The notes: generated by a model from the sequence alone, not told the origin. Positions 1,415 to 8,215 are shown, numbered from the stretch's first letter. The stretch: 33,511 nucleotides of DNA from Candidatus Heimdallarchaeota archaeon (GCA_048881705.1 JBHLSH010000022.1:11928-45438); one strand, 5' to 3'. Made by a program: numbers and translations.

Positions 1415-2137
1415 TTGAATCGGGAAAAGATTGATAATTCCTTGGTTTCACAGGTTGTACAGAACTATAATAACGTCCGTTCACAGCTGGCTCTCCATGC
1501 CCGTTCGGAGATAATCCCCCAAATTATCGTCGTTACGAAAAACCAGCCAGTTCAATTGATAAAGCGGTTGATAACTCGTTTAGCTCATCCCATCTTTGGT
1601 GAGAACCGAATTCAAGAAGCTCTTCCGAAGATTGAAGCGTGTCAAACTGCTCCCCAGAGCGTAGAGTGGCACTTCATCGGCACCCTCCAACGGAACAAGG
1701 TTAAAAGGGCTCTCGGAAAGTTCTCTTTAATCCAATCATTGGATCGGCTTTCCCTAGCCAAGGAAATCGATAAAAGAGCTGGACAACTGAATATTGACCA
1801 AGTAAATTGCCTTCTACAGATTGATGTGATTAGGGATGGATCGAAATCAGGCATAATTCCTGATATCCATGTTATAAAGCAATTTCTAGAACAGTGTGAG
1901 GAATTGTCTCGCCTTCAGATCCTTGGATTGATGACAATGGCACCATGGCTACCACCAGAGGAGACTCGGCCCTATTTCAAACAAATGGCCCAGATATTTC
2001 TCACCTTGCAGGGTTTGTCGTTACCTTCAAATGTCAGGATGGAAATCCTTTCAATGGGAATGAGCAATGATTATTATGTTGCAGTCCAGGAAGGAGCCAC
2101 TATGATCCGTTTAGGGACGGTATTATTTGGAAAATAG
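1415..2137 (+). CDS. yggS: YggS/PLPBP (PROSC) family pyridoxal phosphate homeostasis protein
   Basis: IIVVTK (PLP Lys), FGENRIQEA, WHFIGTLQRNKVK, GLMTMAP and LSMGMSNDY..A..EGATMIRLGTVLFG are the family signatures. Confidence 0.95.
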   Translation: MNREKIDNSLVSQVVQNYNNVRSQLALHARSEIIPQIIVVTKNQPVQLIKRLITRLAHPIFGENRIQEALPKIEACQTAPQSVEWHFIGTLQRNKVKRALGKFSLIQSLDRLSLAKEIDKRAGQLNIDQVNCLLQIDVIRDGSKSGIIPDIHVIKQFLEQCEELSRLQILGLMTMAPWLPPEETRPYFKQMAQIFLTLQGLSLPSNVRMEILSMGMSNDYYVAVQEGATMIRLGTVLFGK

Positions 2138-2192: not shown

Positions 2193-5100
2193 ATGATTGA
2201 GACAGGCGTGAAAAAAATGTCAGAAGTCAAAAAAACGTATTCTATGTCGAAAGATGAAATCAAAATATACTCAACTCTTCAAAAATATGGTTCACAATCG
2301 AGACAGGAATTATTGCTAGCATCTGAACTCCAAGCTGAGAAAGCGGAAAATGCGCTAAAACGTCTCCTTGAGATTGGTTTTGTACAAGAAGATGGAGAAA
2401 TGCAGCTTATATCCCCTGTAATCCCATTTGATAAGATAACGGAATTATTAGATTCAAATTTGAGTAAGATAGTATCTGTTGGTCGAGATCAAAACGAAAC
2501 AATACAGCATTATCGGAAAAAGGCTGAAGAAAGTATTGAAGAATATCGAAGCAACCTAGAATCCAAACTAGGTACATATCAAGATCTTTCAGGAGCATTG
2601 GTATCTGAACTGCAAGAGAGTTTGGGGAACTGGGAATCCGAACAGATCGAACAGACAAACGGGCTATTTGAGGAGATAAAATCTACACTTCAGGACAAGT
2701 TGGCACTCAATAAATCCATGGTTCAGCAAGTAGTGGCTCAAAAAGTTGCTTCATTAGAAAAAAATTGGACAAGTGCATTAGATGAACTTCAACGAGTCCA
2801 ATCTACTGGAGTAAGGATCTTCAATGAAGCAATGGGCCATTACGATCAAGATTTGTCTGAAGCAATTCAACTTGCCAGTGAAAAAATTTCAGATCTGCAT
2901 ACCCAACTTTCAGAAATCACGAATACTCTAGAATCAGTCTTTTCCTCTCAGGTTCAGGAATTTTTTTCTTCAGCTGATGTAATGGCAAAAGATTTCAAGA
3001 ATAACATCAATTCAGGCATACAGGAGTCGTGGAAAAGAGAAGAGGATTTTATAAGTGGGATCCGACAACAGGTTCAGGTTTCTCTGGTTAAAAATGTGAC
3101 TAATGAACTTCAGAAAGTGGTGAATACTCTTAGTAAGGATCTAGATGCTGATATAGATAGGATAATGAAGAATATTCATGATAAGACTGAGGAAATAATT
3201 AAAGATCAAAATAAACACCTAGAAGCACAATTTCAAAACTTCAAAGAGAATGCAAAGGAATTGCTACAGGAACAAAAGGTTCCGTTAAGCGTTCTACAGA
3301 AAGAAGTTACTGAAATCTCGAGTGGTCAAAAACTTGATAGATCCATGACTACTTTCCTTCAACAGCTCGCTGCACAGTTTACTGCAGAGTCGACTTCTCT
3401 TGAGGCTAATTATCGCCAGATCCAAAAGTCCGCAATGGAAACGTTGGAGGAAATCAGGGACAAAACCAAGAAAAACCTCCTAGACCAGAATTCCGAGTTT
3501 GAAAACCTTATTGGTATTATTACTGAGGAATTCGAAAAAATCGTCGCAAATAAAGAGCGAGACGTTTTTACATCCCAACAGATAGCTCAATCTTTGAACC
3601 AATTCCTAGAAAACCTATTAGTCTCTATTCCCATGCGGGCCACGCAGTTAAAGTCATCAGCTAGAGAAGCTCTTGAAGACATCCCTACGGAGCTTAGGGA
3701 AAATCTCCAACGGTCAACTGTTGAAGCTGTTAATAGCCTTCATTTGTCTCTTACCGAAACGCAACAGAGGGTTGAAAATACGTTTAAGGAGAATCAAGAA
3801 GAAAGCCAACGAGAATTCAGTAAGCTCCTCACATCATCTGAGCAACTTTCAACAACAGTATCAAGTCTTAGAACCTCCTATACTGAGACCATTGAAAATC
3901 GATTTGCCCAGCGAGCTAAAGTAATGAATACCGAACTGGAGGCGATTTCAAGAAACTTCCAGCAAGTCTTACACGGATTCGAGGATGGAGTAGGTGATAT
4001 GAAAGGAAGGTTATCTGCTGAAGGGGAACTTCTAGGTCTTGAAACTTCCCTTCAAACCTCTATAAATCAGATAAAAACTGATCTTGATCAATCCTATTCC
4101 CAAACATTGTCAGATTCCAAAGAATATCTTGACTCGGTTAACTCAAGCCTTCAATCATCTCTCGAAGAGACCTTAAATGTCATTAGAGAGGGAATAACAA
4201 ATCTCCAATCAGATTTCAAGAAAAACAGTGATCTTTTCCTTGATCACTTAAAGGAAAATAGTCAAAAACAACAAGGAAGCGTGATCCAAGGGTTGGATGC
4301 AACAGGAACGAAAATATCTGATCAAATCACAGGATTCAAAGAAAACTATCAAAAGATTATCGAAGAAAACCAAAAAAGTGTTGAAGATTACCTTGTGGAA
4401 GGACGCAGGGGCACAGAGGAAGTCATTTCGTTACACAAGGCCAACATTGTCAAGTACCAAGAAAAAGGCCCAGCAGATGTCCTATCGTTTATTACACAGA
4501 TAGAAACGGAGGTTGCAACCCAAAACAAAAATCTTACCGATGCTTTAGAAGATCTCATAAGCGCCTACTCTGGCATTTCTGAAGCAACGTTCGGAGATAT
4601 ATCTGGAACTTTTACTCAATTTCACGAAAGCGGTGATAGGCTCTCATCTGCGACAGATGAATCCATCCAACTGATTTCCAGTGCCATAGGTAAGGCCAAC
4701 GACTCTATTGATCAGTACTTTTCAGATACGATCACGGAACTAGAGAATCAGATAAGCGTCGCAACAGGGCTAATAACCTCTGAAATATCAAGTTCGGCAG
4801 GTACAGTTCGCAATGAAATCAATAAATCTCAACAAGATTACGAAGTAATCATTAAGCGATTGAATTCAGAGTTAAGCGCTAGCCTGTCTCGTCAAGAAAC
4901 AGAATTCATAACTAAAATTCCTGAATTGGAAAAAGATCTATCCTTGATCTTTAACCAGGCTCTAGAAGAACGTGAGTTATCCAGTTCCACCTTAGAGAAG
5001 AGAATAGCTGAAGATTTGGAGGAATTGAAACAGAATTGGCTCAAACAAATTGGAAATGCTGAGACCAAGATCCAAGACCTAATTTCAGGCGTGACAGAGG

Positions 5101-6377
5101 CCGTCGATGCCAACACAGAAAATCTTGAGAAGCATATCCAATCCAATATTGAGCAGATAGCTAAGCAGATCGTAACGCTTTACAGTTTTTCCCCTAAGGA
5201 GGACGTCTTTGAGCTCACGTCGATAAATGATCAGGTGAAAGCGGCCAATAAGCGGTTAAAAAGTGGTATCACAGAGGGTCTAAGGCCTCATATTGAGACT
5301 TTGGATCAAAAATTCCCCGAGTTATTATCAGAACACGATGCTATGCGTAACCAGATAGAAGAGGATCTTGATACCTTTGTGGACGATTTTAGAGACAATT
5401 TATCAAGTGTTCAATCTTCAGTAAGCAATCAAATTCACACCTTTATGAAAGATGAGCGAAAACAAATGAATTTTGCGGATGAAAAAGACGAGCTTAATAC
5501 AATAAGTAAAAATTTTGCTGAAGCTAGTAAAAATCAAAACGAAGCTTTCTCGGAAGATTTAGCAGGATCCATAAACCTTTCCGCCACATCTGTTTCAAAA
5601 TCGAAATCAGATGCTTTGGATTCTATATCAAATATTCCGGAAATATTTACCGGGAGCATTAGCAACCTCAATGAGGAAGTGATTCTGATTACGGATAGCA
5701 CGCGGGAAAAACTGAAGGAACTTGGCCAGGACACAAGAGCAGATATGAGAAAAAAACTTGATTCATTCAGAAGCGATTTCGAAAAATCTGTACGATCTAT
5801 GATTGATGGATCTCATCAAGTAGTTCGTGATGAAATCGAAAATATGAATACCCGACTAATCGAACTAACGAATAAATCCGAAAATACCTTCAAAGAGATC
5901 ACTGATGAGACAAGTGAATTTAAAGACGCCCTTCGGACGATTTCGCTAGAAACGGGTAGAGCAAAGCCGCTTGATTCAATTCGATTTGTTCATATTCCCA
6001 ATGATGCCGCCAATCAGGACTATTTATCCCGTCTTATTGAATCTACTACTAAGCAGTTGACAATATTCGTATCGGATCCTCCACGATTCCTTTCTCTCCC
6101 TGCGTTAAAGAGAATTCCACCTGAAAAAAGGATATGGATCTATACAAACTATGATTTCTCAAAAAAGGGGAAAAAATGGTTGAATGAGCTTGGAAAACAG
6201 GTAAATGTAAATCTACGCAAAGCTAAAACGGATAGGAAAATCACGGGATTGATCGGTGTTGTTGATTCAAAATTGGTTCTGATACTTCCCGATACAATTG
6301 GAATTGTTTCATCGGATTCTAATCTAGTGGAAAACATTACAAATTTATTATCACTGCTTAAAGGGGCTCCAATATAG
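2193..6377 (+). CDS. Giant TrmB-like protein: N-terminal winged HTH, ~1150-aa helical/coiled-coil region, C-terminal TrmB effector (PLD-like fold) domain
   Basis: The N-terminus MSKDEIKIYSTLQKYGSQSRQELLLASEL...ALKRLLEIGFV fits a TrmB wHTH. The middle is E/Q/K/S/L-rich and nearly Pro-free. The C-terminal alpha/beta domain (YLSRLIESTTKQLTIFV...IWIYT...GVVDSKLVLI) resembles the TrmB C-terminal domain. The second ATG at 2217, preceded by AGGCGTG, is the likelier start. Confidence 0.7.
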   Translation: MIETGVKKMSEVKKTYSMSKDEIKIYSTLQKYGSQSRQELLLASELQAEKAENALKRLLEIGFVQEDGEMQLISPVIPFDKITELLDSNLSKIVSVGRDQNETIQHYRKKAEESIEEYRSNLESKLGTYQDLSGALVSELQESLGNWESEQIEQTNGLFEEIKSTLQDKLALNKSMVQQVVAQKVASLEKNWTSALDELQRVQSTGVRIFNEAMGHYDQDLSEAIQLASEKISDLHTQLSEITNTLESVFSSQVQEFFSSADVMAKDFKNNINSGIQESWKREEDFISGIRQQVQVSLVKNVTNELQKVVNTLSKDLDADIDRIMKNIHDKTEEIIKDQNKHLEAQFQNFKENAKELLQEQKVPLSVLQKEVTEISSGQKLDRSMTTFLQQLAAQFTAESTSLEANYRQIQKSAMETLEEIRDKTKKNLLDQNSEFENLIGIITEEFEKIVANKERDVFTSQQIAQSLNQFLENLLVSIPMRATQLKSSAREALEDIPTELRENLQRSTVEAVNSLHLSLTETQQRVENTFKENQEESQREFSKLLTSSEQLSTTVSSLRTSYTETIENRFAQRAKVMNTELEAISRNFQQVLHGFEDGVGDMKGRLSAEGELLGLETSLQTSINQIKTDLDQSYSQTLSDSKEYLDSVNSSLQSSLEETLNVIREGITNLQSDFKKNSDLFLDHLKENSQKQQGSVIQGLDATGTKISDQITGFKENYQKIIEENQKSVEDYLVEGRRGTEEVISLHKANIVKYQEKGPADVLSFITQIETEVATQNKNLTDALEDLISAYSGISEATFGDISGTFTQFHESGDRLSSATDESIQLISSAIGKANDSIDQYFSDTITELENQISVATGLITSEISSSAGTVRNEINKSQQDYEVIIKRLNSELSASLSRQETEFITKIPELEKDLSLIFNQALEERELSSSTLEKRIAEDLEELKQNWLKQIGNAETKIQDLISGVTEAVDANTENLEKHIQSNIEQIAKQIVTLYSFSPKEDVFELTSINDQVKAANKRLKSGITEGLRPHIETLDQKFPELLSEHDAMRNQIEEDLDTFVDDFRDNLSSVQSSVSNQIHTFMKDERKQMNFADEKDELNTISKNFAEASKNQNEAFSEDLAGSINLSATSVSKSKSDALDSISNIPEIFTGSISNLNEEVILITDSTREKLKELGQDTRADMRKKLDSFRSDFEKSVRSMIDGSHQVVRDEIENMNTRLIELTNKSENTFKEITDETSEFKDALRTISLETGRAKPLDSIRFVHIPNDAANQDYLSRLIESTTKQLTIFVSDPPRFLSLPALKRIPPEKRIWIYTNYDFSKKGKKWLNELGKQVNVNLRKAKTDRKITGLIGVVDSKLVLILPDTIGIVSSDSNLVENITNLLSLLKGAPI

Positions 6378-6394: not shown

Positions 6395-8215
6395 TTAAAT
6401 CGAAATCAATCCCAGTAACCCTGTTTGCTCCAAGGTTTTCCCTTTAACCAATCCATTCTTATTAACCCCTTTTATGTGATAATATTCATTCACGAGTTTG
6501 CTCATCGTTTTATTGAAATCAGGGCGTTTGGGTAGGAAATAATCAAACTCATCTTCCTTCCTACTCATTCCCATACGAGTATTGAAGACGCGTTCAACTA
6601 GGGTAATTCTTTGGCCAACTTGGAATATCTGCTTCCAATGCCATGGTATCTCTAAAACGTTCTTTAGAATTAACTCGAGTCTGCCAAAAGATAATCCAAT
6701 TTGGCTTACCATTGGCTTTGACAGGTACTGGAACATGAAGCTGAGAATCCTTTTCGGAAGTATCTTCCAAAAAGGCTTAATACGAAGAAAAAAAGGTAGA
6801 TATCGGCTGCAAACAACCAACGAGTCAAGAAAAGCTATAAGATTTTCAAAAAGTACAACGGTCCGTGCTTTGCCATGTGAACTAAGGGGATCGAGCTTAA
6901 AAGGATAGCCCATAAGTTCTGGCCAGATCATGTAGTCGGAGTGAAAATGCGCACTCCCGAAGGGAGATATTGCTGTAGCCAACGCCAATCCGAGAACTTT
7001 CGGATAATAGAACATCGATCCTATCTGAGATTTGATGAATGGTGCGGGTTCATTTGTTAATTGGTATAAATAACTCTCTCCTCTCGCCAACTGTTCCCCT
7101 AAGTTACGTCTGAAGATGATATCTTCTATTCTTTTATACACATTAATATTTCCCCATTCGTACTCGGTTTGTAACTCCAATAATTTTCGCCGGTCTTCTT
7201 GTATATTTGATAAGGCCGCTAGAGCAGCACCCGTTGAAAGGGGGTCGAGGGCTTCCCTTTCACATTCAGAAATGCTTTTTTGGATCAGGGGAAGATCGAG
7301 AATCTTGAGATTGGGACCAAGGGACACAAAAGCCTGATAGGAATTGCGATTACAGCGAACTGGACATTGCCAGCATTGATATTCTTTACCAAAGCCATTA
7401 AAGGATGAAATCTTCAGTGGATCTAAATTCAGAACCCTAGAAAGATTTTTTGCAGGAAGAACACCATTTTCGATTGCTTCGAAGATTAAACCGAACGTTC
7501 CGTGATTTTGCAGCAACGTATGCCATTCATGAGATTCTAATTCTTCAATCAAAACATCCAGAATATCTGTCGAAAGTCTTTTATCCTGTCGTACCTGTGG
7601 AGCTTCAGTGATGACGATAGCTTTCAGGTTCTTGGACGCCAAAACAGCTCCGAGACCCCCCCGTCTAAAAAAATTTATTCGGTCTACTGCTGCTCCTGCA
7701 AAAACGATTTGATTAACTGCCGCCTGCCCAATGGTCAATATGCACGCAGCATCGCCATATCTGTTTCGTAACCAGTCGTCTGACTCTATAATGTCCTTTT
7801 TCCAAATTGACCGAGCATCCCTAAAATTAATATCCGCAAATTCATCGATTTCCAAATATATTGGGGTTTTAGCAGCTCCATCGATTTGGAGGAAGTTTAA
7901 TTTTTGATTCTCCAAGGCGCCTCCAAGTTTTCCTGTACAGGTTGAAGTGAACAACGTATTGGTGTGGGGAGACTTGAATGTTGCTGTAACATTGCCTCCA
8001 GACGGAAAAATACTGCCAGTTAATGGTCCAGTTCCTATGATAATCGTATTATCGATACCACGAGCGCTCGTATTTGCAGGAATGGCATGATATGCGAGAA
8101 ATACTCCGATTCCCCTACCGCCAAGGAAATTTTCAATGATTTTCTTATCAATTGGTACTTTGGGCGGTATTTTCTCTTCACTTAGGTTGATTGTTTGTAA
8201 TTGCGGCCTCCACAA
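6395..8215 (-). CDS. Aldehyde:ferredoxin oxidoreductase (AOR/WOR) family protein with degenerate active-site motifs
   Basis: FLGGRG, GTGPLTG, KSPHT, RGGLGAVLASKNLKAI, the CWQCPVRC Fe-S triad, ALDPLSTG, GSAH and DSLVVC (fourth Cys). 606 aa, TTG start. Confidence 0.88.
   Translation of the reverse strand: MWRPQLQTINLSEEKIPPKVPIDKKIIENFLGGRGIGVFLAYHAIPANTSARGIDNTIIIGTGPLTGSIFPSGGNVTATFKSPHTNTLFTSTCTGKLGGALENQKLNFLQIDGAAKTPIYLEIDEFADINFRDARSIWKKDIIESDDWLRNRYGDAACILTIGQAAVNQIVFAGAAVDRINFFRRGGLGAVLASKNLKAIVITEAPQVRQDKRLSTDILDVLIEELESHEWHTLLQNHGTFGLIFEAIENGVLPAKNLSRVLNLDPLKISSFNGFGKEYQCWQCPVRCNRNSYQAFVSLGPNLKILDLPLIQKSISECEREALDPLSTGAALAALSNIQEDRRKLLELQTEYEWGNINVYKRIEDIIFRRNLGEQLARGESYLYQLTNEPAPFIKSQIGSMFYYPKVLGLALATAISPFGSAHFHSDYMIWPELMGYPFKLDPLSSHGKARTVVLFENLIAFLDSLVVCSRYLPFFLRIKPFWKILPKRILSFMFQYLSKPMVSQIGLSFGRLELILKNVLEIPWHWKQIFQVGQRITLVERVFNTRMGMSRKEDEFDYFLPKRPDFNKTMSKLVNEYYHIKGVNKNGLVKGKTLEQTGLLGLISI

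Follow-up and report, generated by a model that had tools for sequence, protein, structure and literature searches.

The subject of this analysis is a gene in a 33,511-nucleotide stretch of DNA from a Candidatus Heimdallarchaeota archaeon (GCA_048881705.1 JBHLSH010000022.1:11928-45438), which we refer to at its full length as the window. At positions 2193-6377 of the plus strand, a single open frame of 1394 codons encodes a protein in which a winged helix-turn-helix (wHTH) domain of the TrmB type and a non-catalytic PLD-like domain of the TrmB/TrmBL2 type stand at the two ends of a helical rod of about 1175 residues. The small TrmB regulators of archaea are textbook cases, and TrmBL2 belongs to the chromatin proteins; in the present protein, a TrmB-type head is carried on a rod comparable to the arm of an SMC protein, with no motor. 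Our favored, if tentative, reading of the whole is that of a TrmBL2-derived protein whose rod has become a fold-back hendecad strut, i.e., a structural spacer or tether. Full-text literature searches turned up no paper on giant-rod proteins of the TrmB type, and the family, a branch of TrmB/TrmBL2 that is so far Asgard-only, is undescribed: the TrmB/TrmBL2 family itself is known, but this architecture is unprecedented.

The frame as given opens on its first ATG. However, because every orthologue begins at the equivalent of Met9 (this being the first residue in all 17 that were fetched, and in P0003 and P0004), the likely start is at nucleotide 2217 and the product 1386 amino acids (aa) in length; residues are nevertheless numbered throughout on the 1394-aa frame. 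The encoding archaeon is taken here as an Asgard of the Thor type, and public copies of the protein reside in metagenome bins labelled Thorarchaeota, with the annotation "hypothetical protein". That this is a real gene, and one on which purifying selection acts, is evident from the comparisons that follow.

A hendecad rod of fixed length

The rod occupies residues 81-1255, between the wHTH and the C-terminal domain (C-domain), and has 0.8% Pro, no Cys, a composition rich in E, S, L, Q, I and K, a longest Pro-free run of 285 residues, and a net charge of -79. The Fourier spectrum of its hydropathy has a single dominant peak at 3.64 residues, with a power of 419 versus a shuffle maximum of ~85, and all 110-residue segments along it peak at 3.59-3.74, with the power at 3.50 near background. 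With a period of 3.64-3.67 residues, the rod is a coil of the hendecad and not the heptad type, running straight or almost so. Periods of 3.64 and 3.667 are resolvable at this rod length, and the coherent peak is at the former, a value that corresponds to 51/14 or 40/11 and to a helix without supercoiling. The original prediction, made from the DNA alone, had described a long and almost Pro-free amphipathic stretch and had posed heptad versus hendecad as a question, and while the description holds, the answer to the question is clearly hendecad. It had also remarked on the lack of a transmembrane segment and of a Walker A motif, and this was borne out by our scans, in which the hydropathy maximum (1.65) sits in the β-core of the C-domain, and neither a Walker A or B pattern nor an ATPase family match was found. 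Internal repeats within the rod are weak, in that hhalign comparisons of eight rod segments produced one pair at 80% probability and the remainder at <30%; a recent tandem array was considered and rejected on these weak self-matches.

When the ORFs of at least 500 aa in the genome (556 in total) were ranked by their 11/3 power, the rod protein and two paralogues, described below, took the top three places, about three-fold above all other ORFs. Among ORFs of 200 aa or more, a scan of limited sensitivity revealed no other with strong 11/3 periodicity in this genome, which is 91% complete.

A search of 400 Asgard genomes located the C-domain in 19 of the 21 genomes of the same genus, essentially in single copy, with the same-genus hits lying in open frames of 1390-1413 codons. 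The 17 fetched orthologues (1389-1404 aa) were aligned with the window protein, giving 18 sequences in all. Rod identity to the window protein is 33-38%, one orthologue excepted at 87%, and the entire rod aligns with only seven indel sites, each of 1-2 residues. Mean column conservation is 0.64 for the rod, 0.63 for the wHTH and 0.69 for the C-domain, and the dN/dS values relative to the closest orthologue are 0.11, 0.14 and 0.09, respectively. Since it is conserved like the end domains and has a low dN/dS, the rod is not a floppy spacer. Moreover, the most conserved blocks of the protein are all within the rod, i.e., residues 570-592 (RF.QRAKVMNTELEAI..NFQQV; positions 3900-3968, plus strand), which are the most conserved, residues 743-767 (EVI.LHK.NI.KYQ.KG..D.LSFI; positions 4419-4493, plus strand), which are the second, and residues 660-670. 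That the length of the rod has been conserved to the residue over a deep divergence suggests that its geometry is itself under selection.

In other Asgard clades, the proteins in which more distant C-domain relatives occur invariably combine a TrmB wHTH, a hendecad rod and a PLD-like domain, and fall into size classes of 741-747, about 1231 and 1907-2084 aa. The 741-747-aa class, from genera g9 and g5, is labelled Heimdallarchaeota by NCBI, and 19 of its 21 fetched members are exactly 747 aa, the other two being 741 aa; hhalign joins the 747-aa and 1386-aa classes at 97-98% probability. The members of this class carry the names "hypothetical", "HTH domain-containing" or "TrmB", and we consider public names such as "hypothetical" or "sugar-specific regulator TrmB" to be misleading for the family. 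The ESM Atlas includes further Asgard clusters of 652-872 aa carrying TrmB. In the window's own genome there are two rod-TrmB paralogues, both of which have the wHTH-rod-PLD-like build, of 767 aa (G000 contig C117:1621-3924, minus strand) and 812 aa (G000 contig C25:18116-20554, plus strand), whose rods have periods of 3.62-3.67, and there are two canonical TrmBs as well, of 261 and 278 aa. Canonical TrmBs of 250-300 aa were also what a survey of PF01978 in 61 Asgard genomes mainly found among the matches listed. The original prediction had suggested surveying Asgard homologues for a variable rod length, and the length does vary between lineages and between paralogues, but within each it is fixed, almost to the residue within a clade.

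The Pfam Apolipoprotein family (PF01442) matches the rod in seven stretches at 112.2 bits versus a cut-off of 90, the best of them at residues 931-1085, and PDB profile matches were obtained to ApoA-I (E 5e-6) and ApoA-IV. In homologues the PF01442 scores are mostly 46-73 bits, below the cut-off, with one reaching 92. Most likely these matches reflect periodicity and composition, not descent, but they bear on two other explanations for the rod. According to one, the rod is a chain of compact helical bundles, like those of apolipoproteins, spectrin or the talin rod, split by Pro/Gly breaks and serving as a many-surface scaffold. Conserved Pro/Gly breaks do occur at a dozen rod sites (203/206, 275, 480, 599/601, 667, 759/760, 814, 859, 910, 1007, 1042 and 1205), the hydrophobic seam shifts phase about six times along the rod, and the high surface conservation would fit many interfaces, all of which, together with the apolipoprotein matches, speak for bundles. 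The weakness of the internal repeats speaks against them, as does a hydrophobic face that is narrow for multi-helix bundles, and with the unbroken helices of the model described below also counting against it, we consider a bundle chain decidedly unlikely.

The second explanation is that the protein coats a lipid surface or inclusion (a membrane, a lipid droplet or a polyhydroxyalkanoate (PHA)-type granule), with the wHTH either tethering the coated body to DNA, in the manner of PhaF/PhaM, or sensing, like PhaR. In addition to the Pfam match, homologues have weak Phasin, PhaP, ApoLp-III and REF matches, and an 11/3 period is typical of lipid-surface helices. However, a helical-wheel census of the 18 orthologues found that 3 of the 11 positions are 55-73% hydrophobic and two more ~30%, and that K/R are no commoner than D/E at the seam interface. 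There is, therefore, no class-A charge pattern, and the narrow seam fits helix-helix packing better than it does class-A lipid-surface helices. The net charge of the rod would also be unfavorable on anionic archaeal membranes, a length fixed to the residue and a sequence so well conserved are not typical of coat helices, PhaC_N, i.e., a PHA synthase, was not found in the 91%-complete genome, and the wHTH looks poorly suited to DNA. A lipid coat is, in our estimation, quite improbable, and the apolipoprotein-like lipid sensor that had been suggested for this protein is not supported, on the same grounds.

The two ends of the protein

The C-domain (residues 1256-1394; positions 5958-6374, plus strand) is 139 residues in length and was identified by its fold alone, as Pfam searches with the last 175 residues gave no match even at E<=10, PF11495 (Regulator_TrmB) included, and PDB sequence searches produced nothing for it. 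An AlphaFold2 (AF2) model built from 11 sequences (pLDDT 82, pTM 0.68) has a helix and then a compact α/β domain, for which Foldseek ranked TrmB 3qph first and TrmBL2 5bpi third. VIA-align comparisons of the model against 48,161 chains gave NucT (Z 14.0), Nuc (13.5), FAM83B (13.4), TrmB 2f5t (Z 13.3, rmsd 2.5 Å, 121 aligned, TrmB residues 110-241), TrmB 3qph (13.1) and TrmBL2 (12.2), with unrelated folds at <5; taken over all comparisons, the Z values to TrmBL2 were 12.2-13.6. A phmmer search of 1.84 billion representatives returned the C-domain from this family only, in 9 clusters at E<1e-10, the short members of which were mostly contig-end fragments.

As the catalytic HxK(x)4D motif is not present, and the sole His of the domain (H1267) is not conserved among the orthologues, the C-domain is a catalytically dead PLD-like domain. 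In addition, nothing follows the PLD-like domain, and the match to the TrmB structure extends no further than TrmB residue 241; the sugar-binding β-barrel is hence absent, leaving no basis for effector or sugar sensing. The original prediction of a TrmB-effector-like C-terminus was, therefore, correct in regard to the PLD-like fold shared with TrmB and TrmBL2, but not in regard to the sugar-binding barrel. The C-domain is the sole clearly basic part of the protein (pI 9.9, net charge about +9), and it contains a basic loop, DFSKKGKKW (residues 1321-1329; positions 6153-6179, plus strand), that is invariant in the 11 sequences of the model and in the 18 of the orthologue alignment, and that the 747-aa class lacks. 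Among the fold relatives of the C-domain are proteins that bind nucleic acids (Nuc, Zucchini and PLD3), the protein-binding FAM83 pseudo-enzymes, and MITD1 (Z 6), a membrane binder; that PLD-like pseudo-enzymes such as MITD1 bind membranes is a further point in favor of the lipid coat discussed above.

The N-terminal wHTH (residues 17-80; positions 2241-2432, plus strand) matched Pfam PF01978 over residues 17-67 at 27.6 bits versus a cut-off of 25.6 when the protein was read from M9, and at 23.3 bits when the full 1394-aa ORF was scored. In the other size classes, the homologues have PF01978 scores of 19.8-39.8 bits, and the family profile reaches TrmBL2 and TrmB in the PDB via the N-terminus. 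The proposal that both termini would match TrmB has thus been upheld, at the N-terminus by Pfam and at the C-terminus by fold.

A DNA-binding function for this head, which had also been proposed, is another matter. The recognition helix of TrmB has a Tyr50 and an Asp51 that are important for its recognition of DNA (PMC4158304). In an alignment of the recognition helix (residues 46-58; positions 2328-2366, plus strand) with those of the canonical TrmBs of the same genome, which retain K-I-Y-R / R-I-Y-D at this spot, the equivalent residues of the window protein are Glu52-Asn53. The sequence there is E-K-A-E-N or similar in the window protein and in its orthologues, with an acidic residue (E/D) replacing the Tyr in all orthologues, and the 747-aa class has a Lys at the Tyr position. 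The net charge of the first 75 residues is -2 to -4. Since MreA is without the Tyr and still regulates (PMC4158304), the loss of the Tyr would weaken DNA binding but does not exclude it. The family match of the wHTH stands, then, while its binding to DNA appears doubtful from the residues that it has at the critical positions.

These features of the two ends bear on the most conventional explanation, i.e., that the protein is an ordinary sequence-specific regulator of the TrmB type, with the rod as a sensor or a mere spacer. In keeping with it are the wHTH score above the Pfam cut-off and the public annotation of relatives as "TrmB" or "HTH domain-containing". However, the sugar-binding subdomain is absent, the recognition helix is acidic and no longer has its Tyr-Asp pair, domain-like conservation would not be expected of a spacer, and two canonical TrmBs coexist in the genome. 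Of all the explanations considered here, we find it the least probable.

A rod that probably folds back on itself

The shape of the whole protein was approached through an AF2 model of a 747-aa homologue, which has a wHTH, a helix at residues 71-273, a low-confidence middle at residues 274-386, a second helix at residues 387-596, and the PLD-like domain. The two long helices are equal in length, ~200 residues each, and unbroken, which, as noted, is not what a chain of compact bundles would lead one to expect. VIA aligned residues 72-586 of this model (386 residues) with the antiparallel Rad50 arm 7zr1_D (Z 11.6, rmsd 10.5 Å), which we take as a hint only because long helices score easily.

For the 1386-aa protein, the conservation profile of the 18 orthologues has a mirror symmetry, the best mirror sum of all registers being p+q = 1334 (r 0.60, 580 pairs). 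An r of 0.60 was reached in none of 300 block shuffles, and direct-shift controls gave r <= 0.15. A sum of about 1334 is that given a priori by the rod ends (80+1255), its center at ~667 falls on the invariant G667, and under it the highly conserved blocks 570-592 and 743-767 face each other. The arrangement so proposed has an N-arm (residues 81-660; positions 2433-4172, plus strand), which has a period of 3.6-3.7 in all segments and a narrow seam in addition to the mirror symmetry, an apex (residues 661-674; positions 4173-4214, plus strand), which is conserved and has G667 within a VI(R/K)EG motif, and a C-arm (residues 675-1255; positions 4215-5957, plus strand), for which periodicity, conservation and mirror symmetry are likewise the basis. 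That the rod folds back on itself is supported, though not demonstrated, by these data, and we consider it probable. A mirror correlation of hydrophobic-moment amplitude was also tried, but it failed on its control and was dropped.

A different pairing of the long helices is possible in principle, i.e., a parallel, in-register homodimeric coiled coil, which would hold a pair of wHTHs and a pair of PLD-like domains ~170 nm apart and thereby bridge two targets. The helix after the wHTH is the dimerization element in both TrmB and TrmBL2 (PMC4158304, PMC4877046), a seam as narrow as 3-4 in 11 positions is in keeping with a coil of two strands, and the evidence for a hairpin is indirect, all of which make this a natural alternative. 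However, a mirror symmetry about residue 667 is not expected for in-register pairing, the model of the 747-aa homologue has helices of equal length flanking a distinct middle, and in such a dimer the net -79 of each chain would be juxtaposed in register. On balance, we regard the parallel dimer as unlikely.

In the fold-back reading that we tentatively prefer, a short amphipathic dimerization helix between the wHTH and the PLD-like domain would have expanded to a hendecad (11/3) helix of ~1175 residues, with an antiparallel pairing of two arms (81-660 and 675-1255), each of ~580 residues. The TrmBL2-like head, at one end of a rod that would be straight and ~85 nm in length, would consist of the wHTH and the basic PLD-like domain together, with the conserved apex at the far end from the head; folded in the same way, the 747-aa class would have a rod of about 30 nm. 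By analogy to TrmBL2 the head may oligomerize, and it would potentially hold a polyanionic ligand, DNA or other, more likely via the basic C-domain than via the acidic wHTH, with the conserved rod surface and the apex binding something else at a set distance. The protein would thus act as an ATP-independent structural strut or tether of fixed length. It is in this conditional form that we retain the suggestion, made in the original prediction, of a chromosome organizer or tether.

Several points weigh against this reading. The whole-chain model is that of the 747-aa homologue (21 sequences), not of the 1386-aa protein itself, its pTM is only 0.31 (pLDDT 68), and in monomer predictions there is a tendency for helices to be folded back. 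After detrending, the mirror peak is still the highest (r 0.47-0.50), yet reaches only the 95th percentile or so of the null maximum, and in the 747-aa class the mirror test peaked at 649-650, near the expected sum, and was not significant. Scans of registers for covariation (charge, volume and hydropathy; 18 sequences) had no signal at p+q ~1334, and a scan for charge complementarity was null there as well; both of the proposed arms are acidic. A symmetry of Pro/Gly breaks sought by eye (1512-1520 or 1335) was clean in neither case and was rejected as evidence. Finally, on the side of function, the recognition helix is acidic, so that the head may not bind DNA at all, and no gene neighbor is conserved across clades, the other size classes adjoining unrelated genes.

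A bolder extension of the strut, which we rate as rather improbable, is that Asgard archaea have derived ATP-independent "molecular rulers" from a chromatin protein, i.e., fold-back rods of ~30, 85 and 130 nm, several sizes per cell, the heads of which would grip the nucleoid or another polyanionic structure and the apices of which would dock on the membrane, the cytoskeleton or the division apparatus. If true, such rulers would set distances inside the cells of the lineage closest to eukaryotes, and would be a functional analogue of eukaryotic long coiled-coil tethers. The occurrence of several size classes and paralogues per genome is of broader relevance, as the internal cell organization of Asgard archaea bears on eukaryogenesis and is almost unexplored, and the family may reveal how cellular structures are spaced or tethered independently of ATP.

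Genomic setting

Directly upstream of the rod gene, across a 79-nucleotide gap, is a gene for a YggS-like pyridoxal phosphate-binding protein (positions 1415-2137, plus strand; Pfam Ala_racemase_N), and the two may be co-transcribed. Downstream, and convergent with the rod gene, is a gene of the AOR (aldehyde ferredoxin oxidoreductase) family (positions 6395-8215, minus strand). Further neighbors encode a DegT-type aminotransferase (minus strand) and, beyond the AOR gene, a TPR protein, PurA and a HAD hydrolase, and these neighbors of the rod gene are housekeeping genes. Neither the rod gene nor its two paralogues are flanked by a switch-type ATPase gene and a gene for a second rod protein. 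The order DegT(-)/YggS-like(+)/rod gene(+)/AOR-like(-) has been kept in 18 of 18 genomes of the genus. A conserved operon partner was nevertheless rejected as a candidate, since this synteny is limited to the genus and the neighbors in other clades differ; without a neighbor shared across clades, the genomic context gives no functional clue.

As to the surroundings of other family members, the gene of the 767-aa paralogue divergently adjoins a gene for a small Ras/Rab-like GTPase (C117:4146-4739). The 2084-aa member (genome G305) adjoins a gene (L024:80-1243, minus strand) for a protein of 388 aa with E3_UFM1_ligase (1e-7), PCI and DDRGK matches, a eukaryotic signature protein of a UFMylation-like kind within an Asgard bin. 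A 747-aa homologue (genome G017) adjoins a gene (L021:4172-4642, minus strand) for a protein of 157 aa that matches Fuz_longin_1 exactly at the Pfam cut-off, the family being that of the longin domain of FUZ/MON1/HPS1.

Comparison with known systems

TrmBL2 (TK0471/PF0496; PDB 5bpd, 5bpi, 5bqt and 5box), a nucleoid-associated protein of the Thermococcales, has a wHTH, an amphipathic helix and a domain at the C-terminus, in that order, and oligomerizes (PMC4877046). The rod protein has the same wHTH-helix-PLD-like order and likewise no sugar barrel, and TrmBL2 is among the top Foldseek matches to the C-domain plus its preceding helix and matches the N-terminal profile too. However, TrmBL2 is a protein of 264 aa with a linker helix of ~35 residues, whereas here the linker has ~1175 residues and an 11/3 period, Glu-Asn replaces Tyr-Asp, the wHTH is acidic, and there is a clade-specific basic loop.

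TrmB (P. furiosus/T. litoralis; 3qph and 2f5t) has in common with the rod protein the wHTH family and the PLD-like N-subdomain of its effector domain. The amphipathic helix that directly follows the wHTH, starting at ~residue 81 here and at residue 71 in the homologue model, is about 30 times longer than in TrmB, and the rod is a giant addition. In TrmB and TrmBL1 it is the β-barrel subdomain that binds sugar, and this C-terminal barrel, the holder of most of the sugar contacts in TrmB, has no counterpart in the rod protein.

The exchangeable apolipoproteins (ApoA-I/A-IV/E, PF01442) and the phasins resemble the rod in having amphipathic helices with an 11-residue periodicity. Unlike the apolipoproteins, the rod protein is cytoplasmic and archaeal, with no class-A charge distribution, a narrow seam and an exactly fixed length. 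The bacterial long coiled-coil cytoskeletal proteins of the Scy/FilP type have a 51-residue repeat, corresponding to about 3.64 residues per turn. They are set beside the rod protein here by description only: in both, the coiled coil is very long and non-heptad and its period is close to 3.64, but the Scy/FilP-type proteins are without the wHTH and PLD-like end domains.

In regard to the SMC, Rad50 and MukB arms, there is no homology, and the rod protein has no ABC ATPase head, no hinge domain and, being devoid of Cys, no zinc hook, while its coil is hendecad and not heptad. The likeness to them is one of probable topology, as modelled: N- and C-terminal parts that would come together as one head, an antiparallel intramolecular coiled coil, and a conserved apex.

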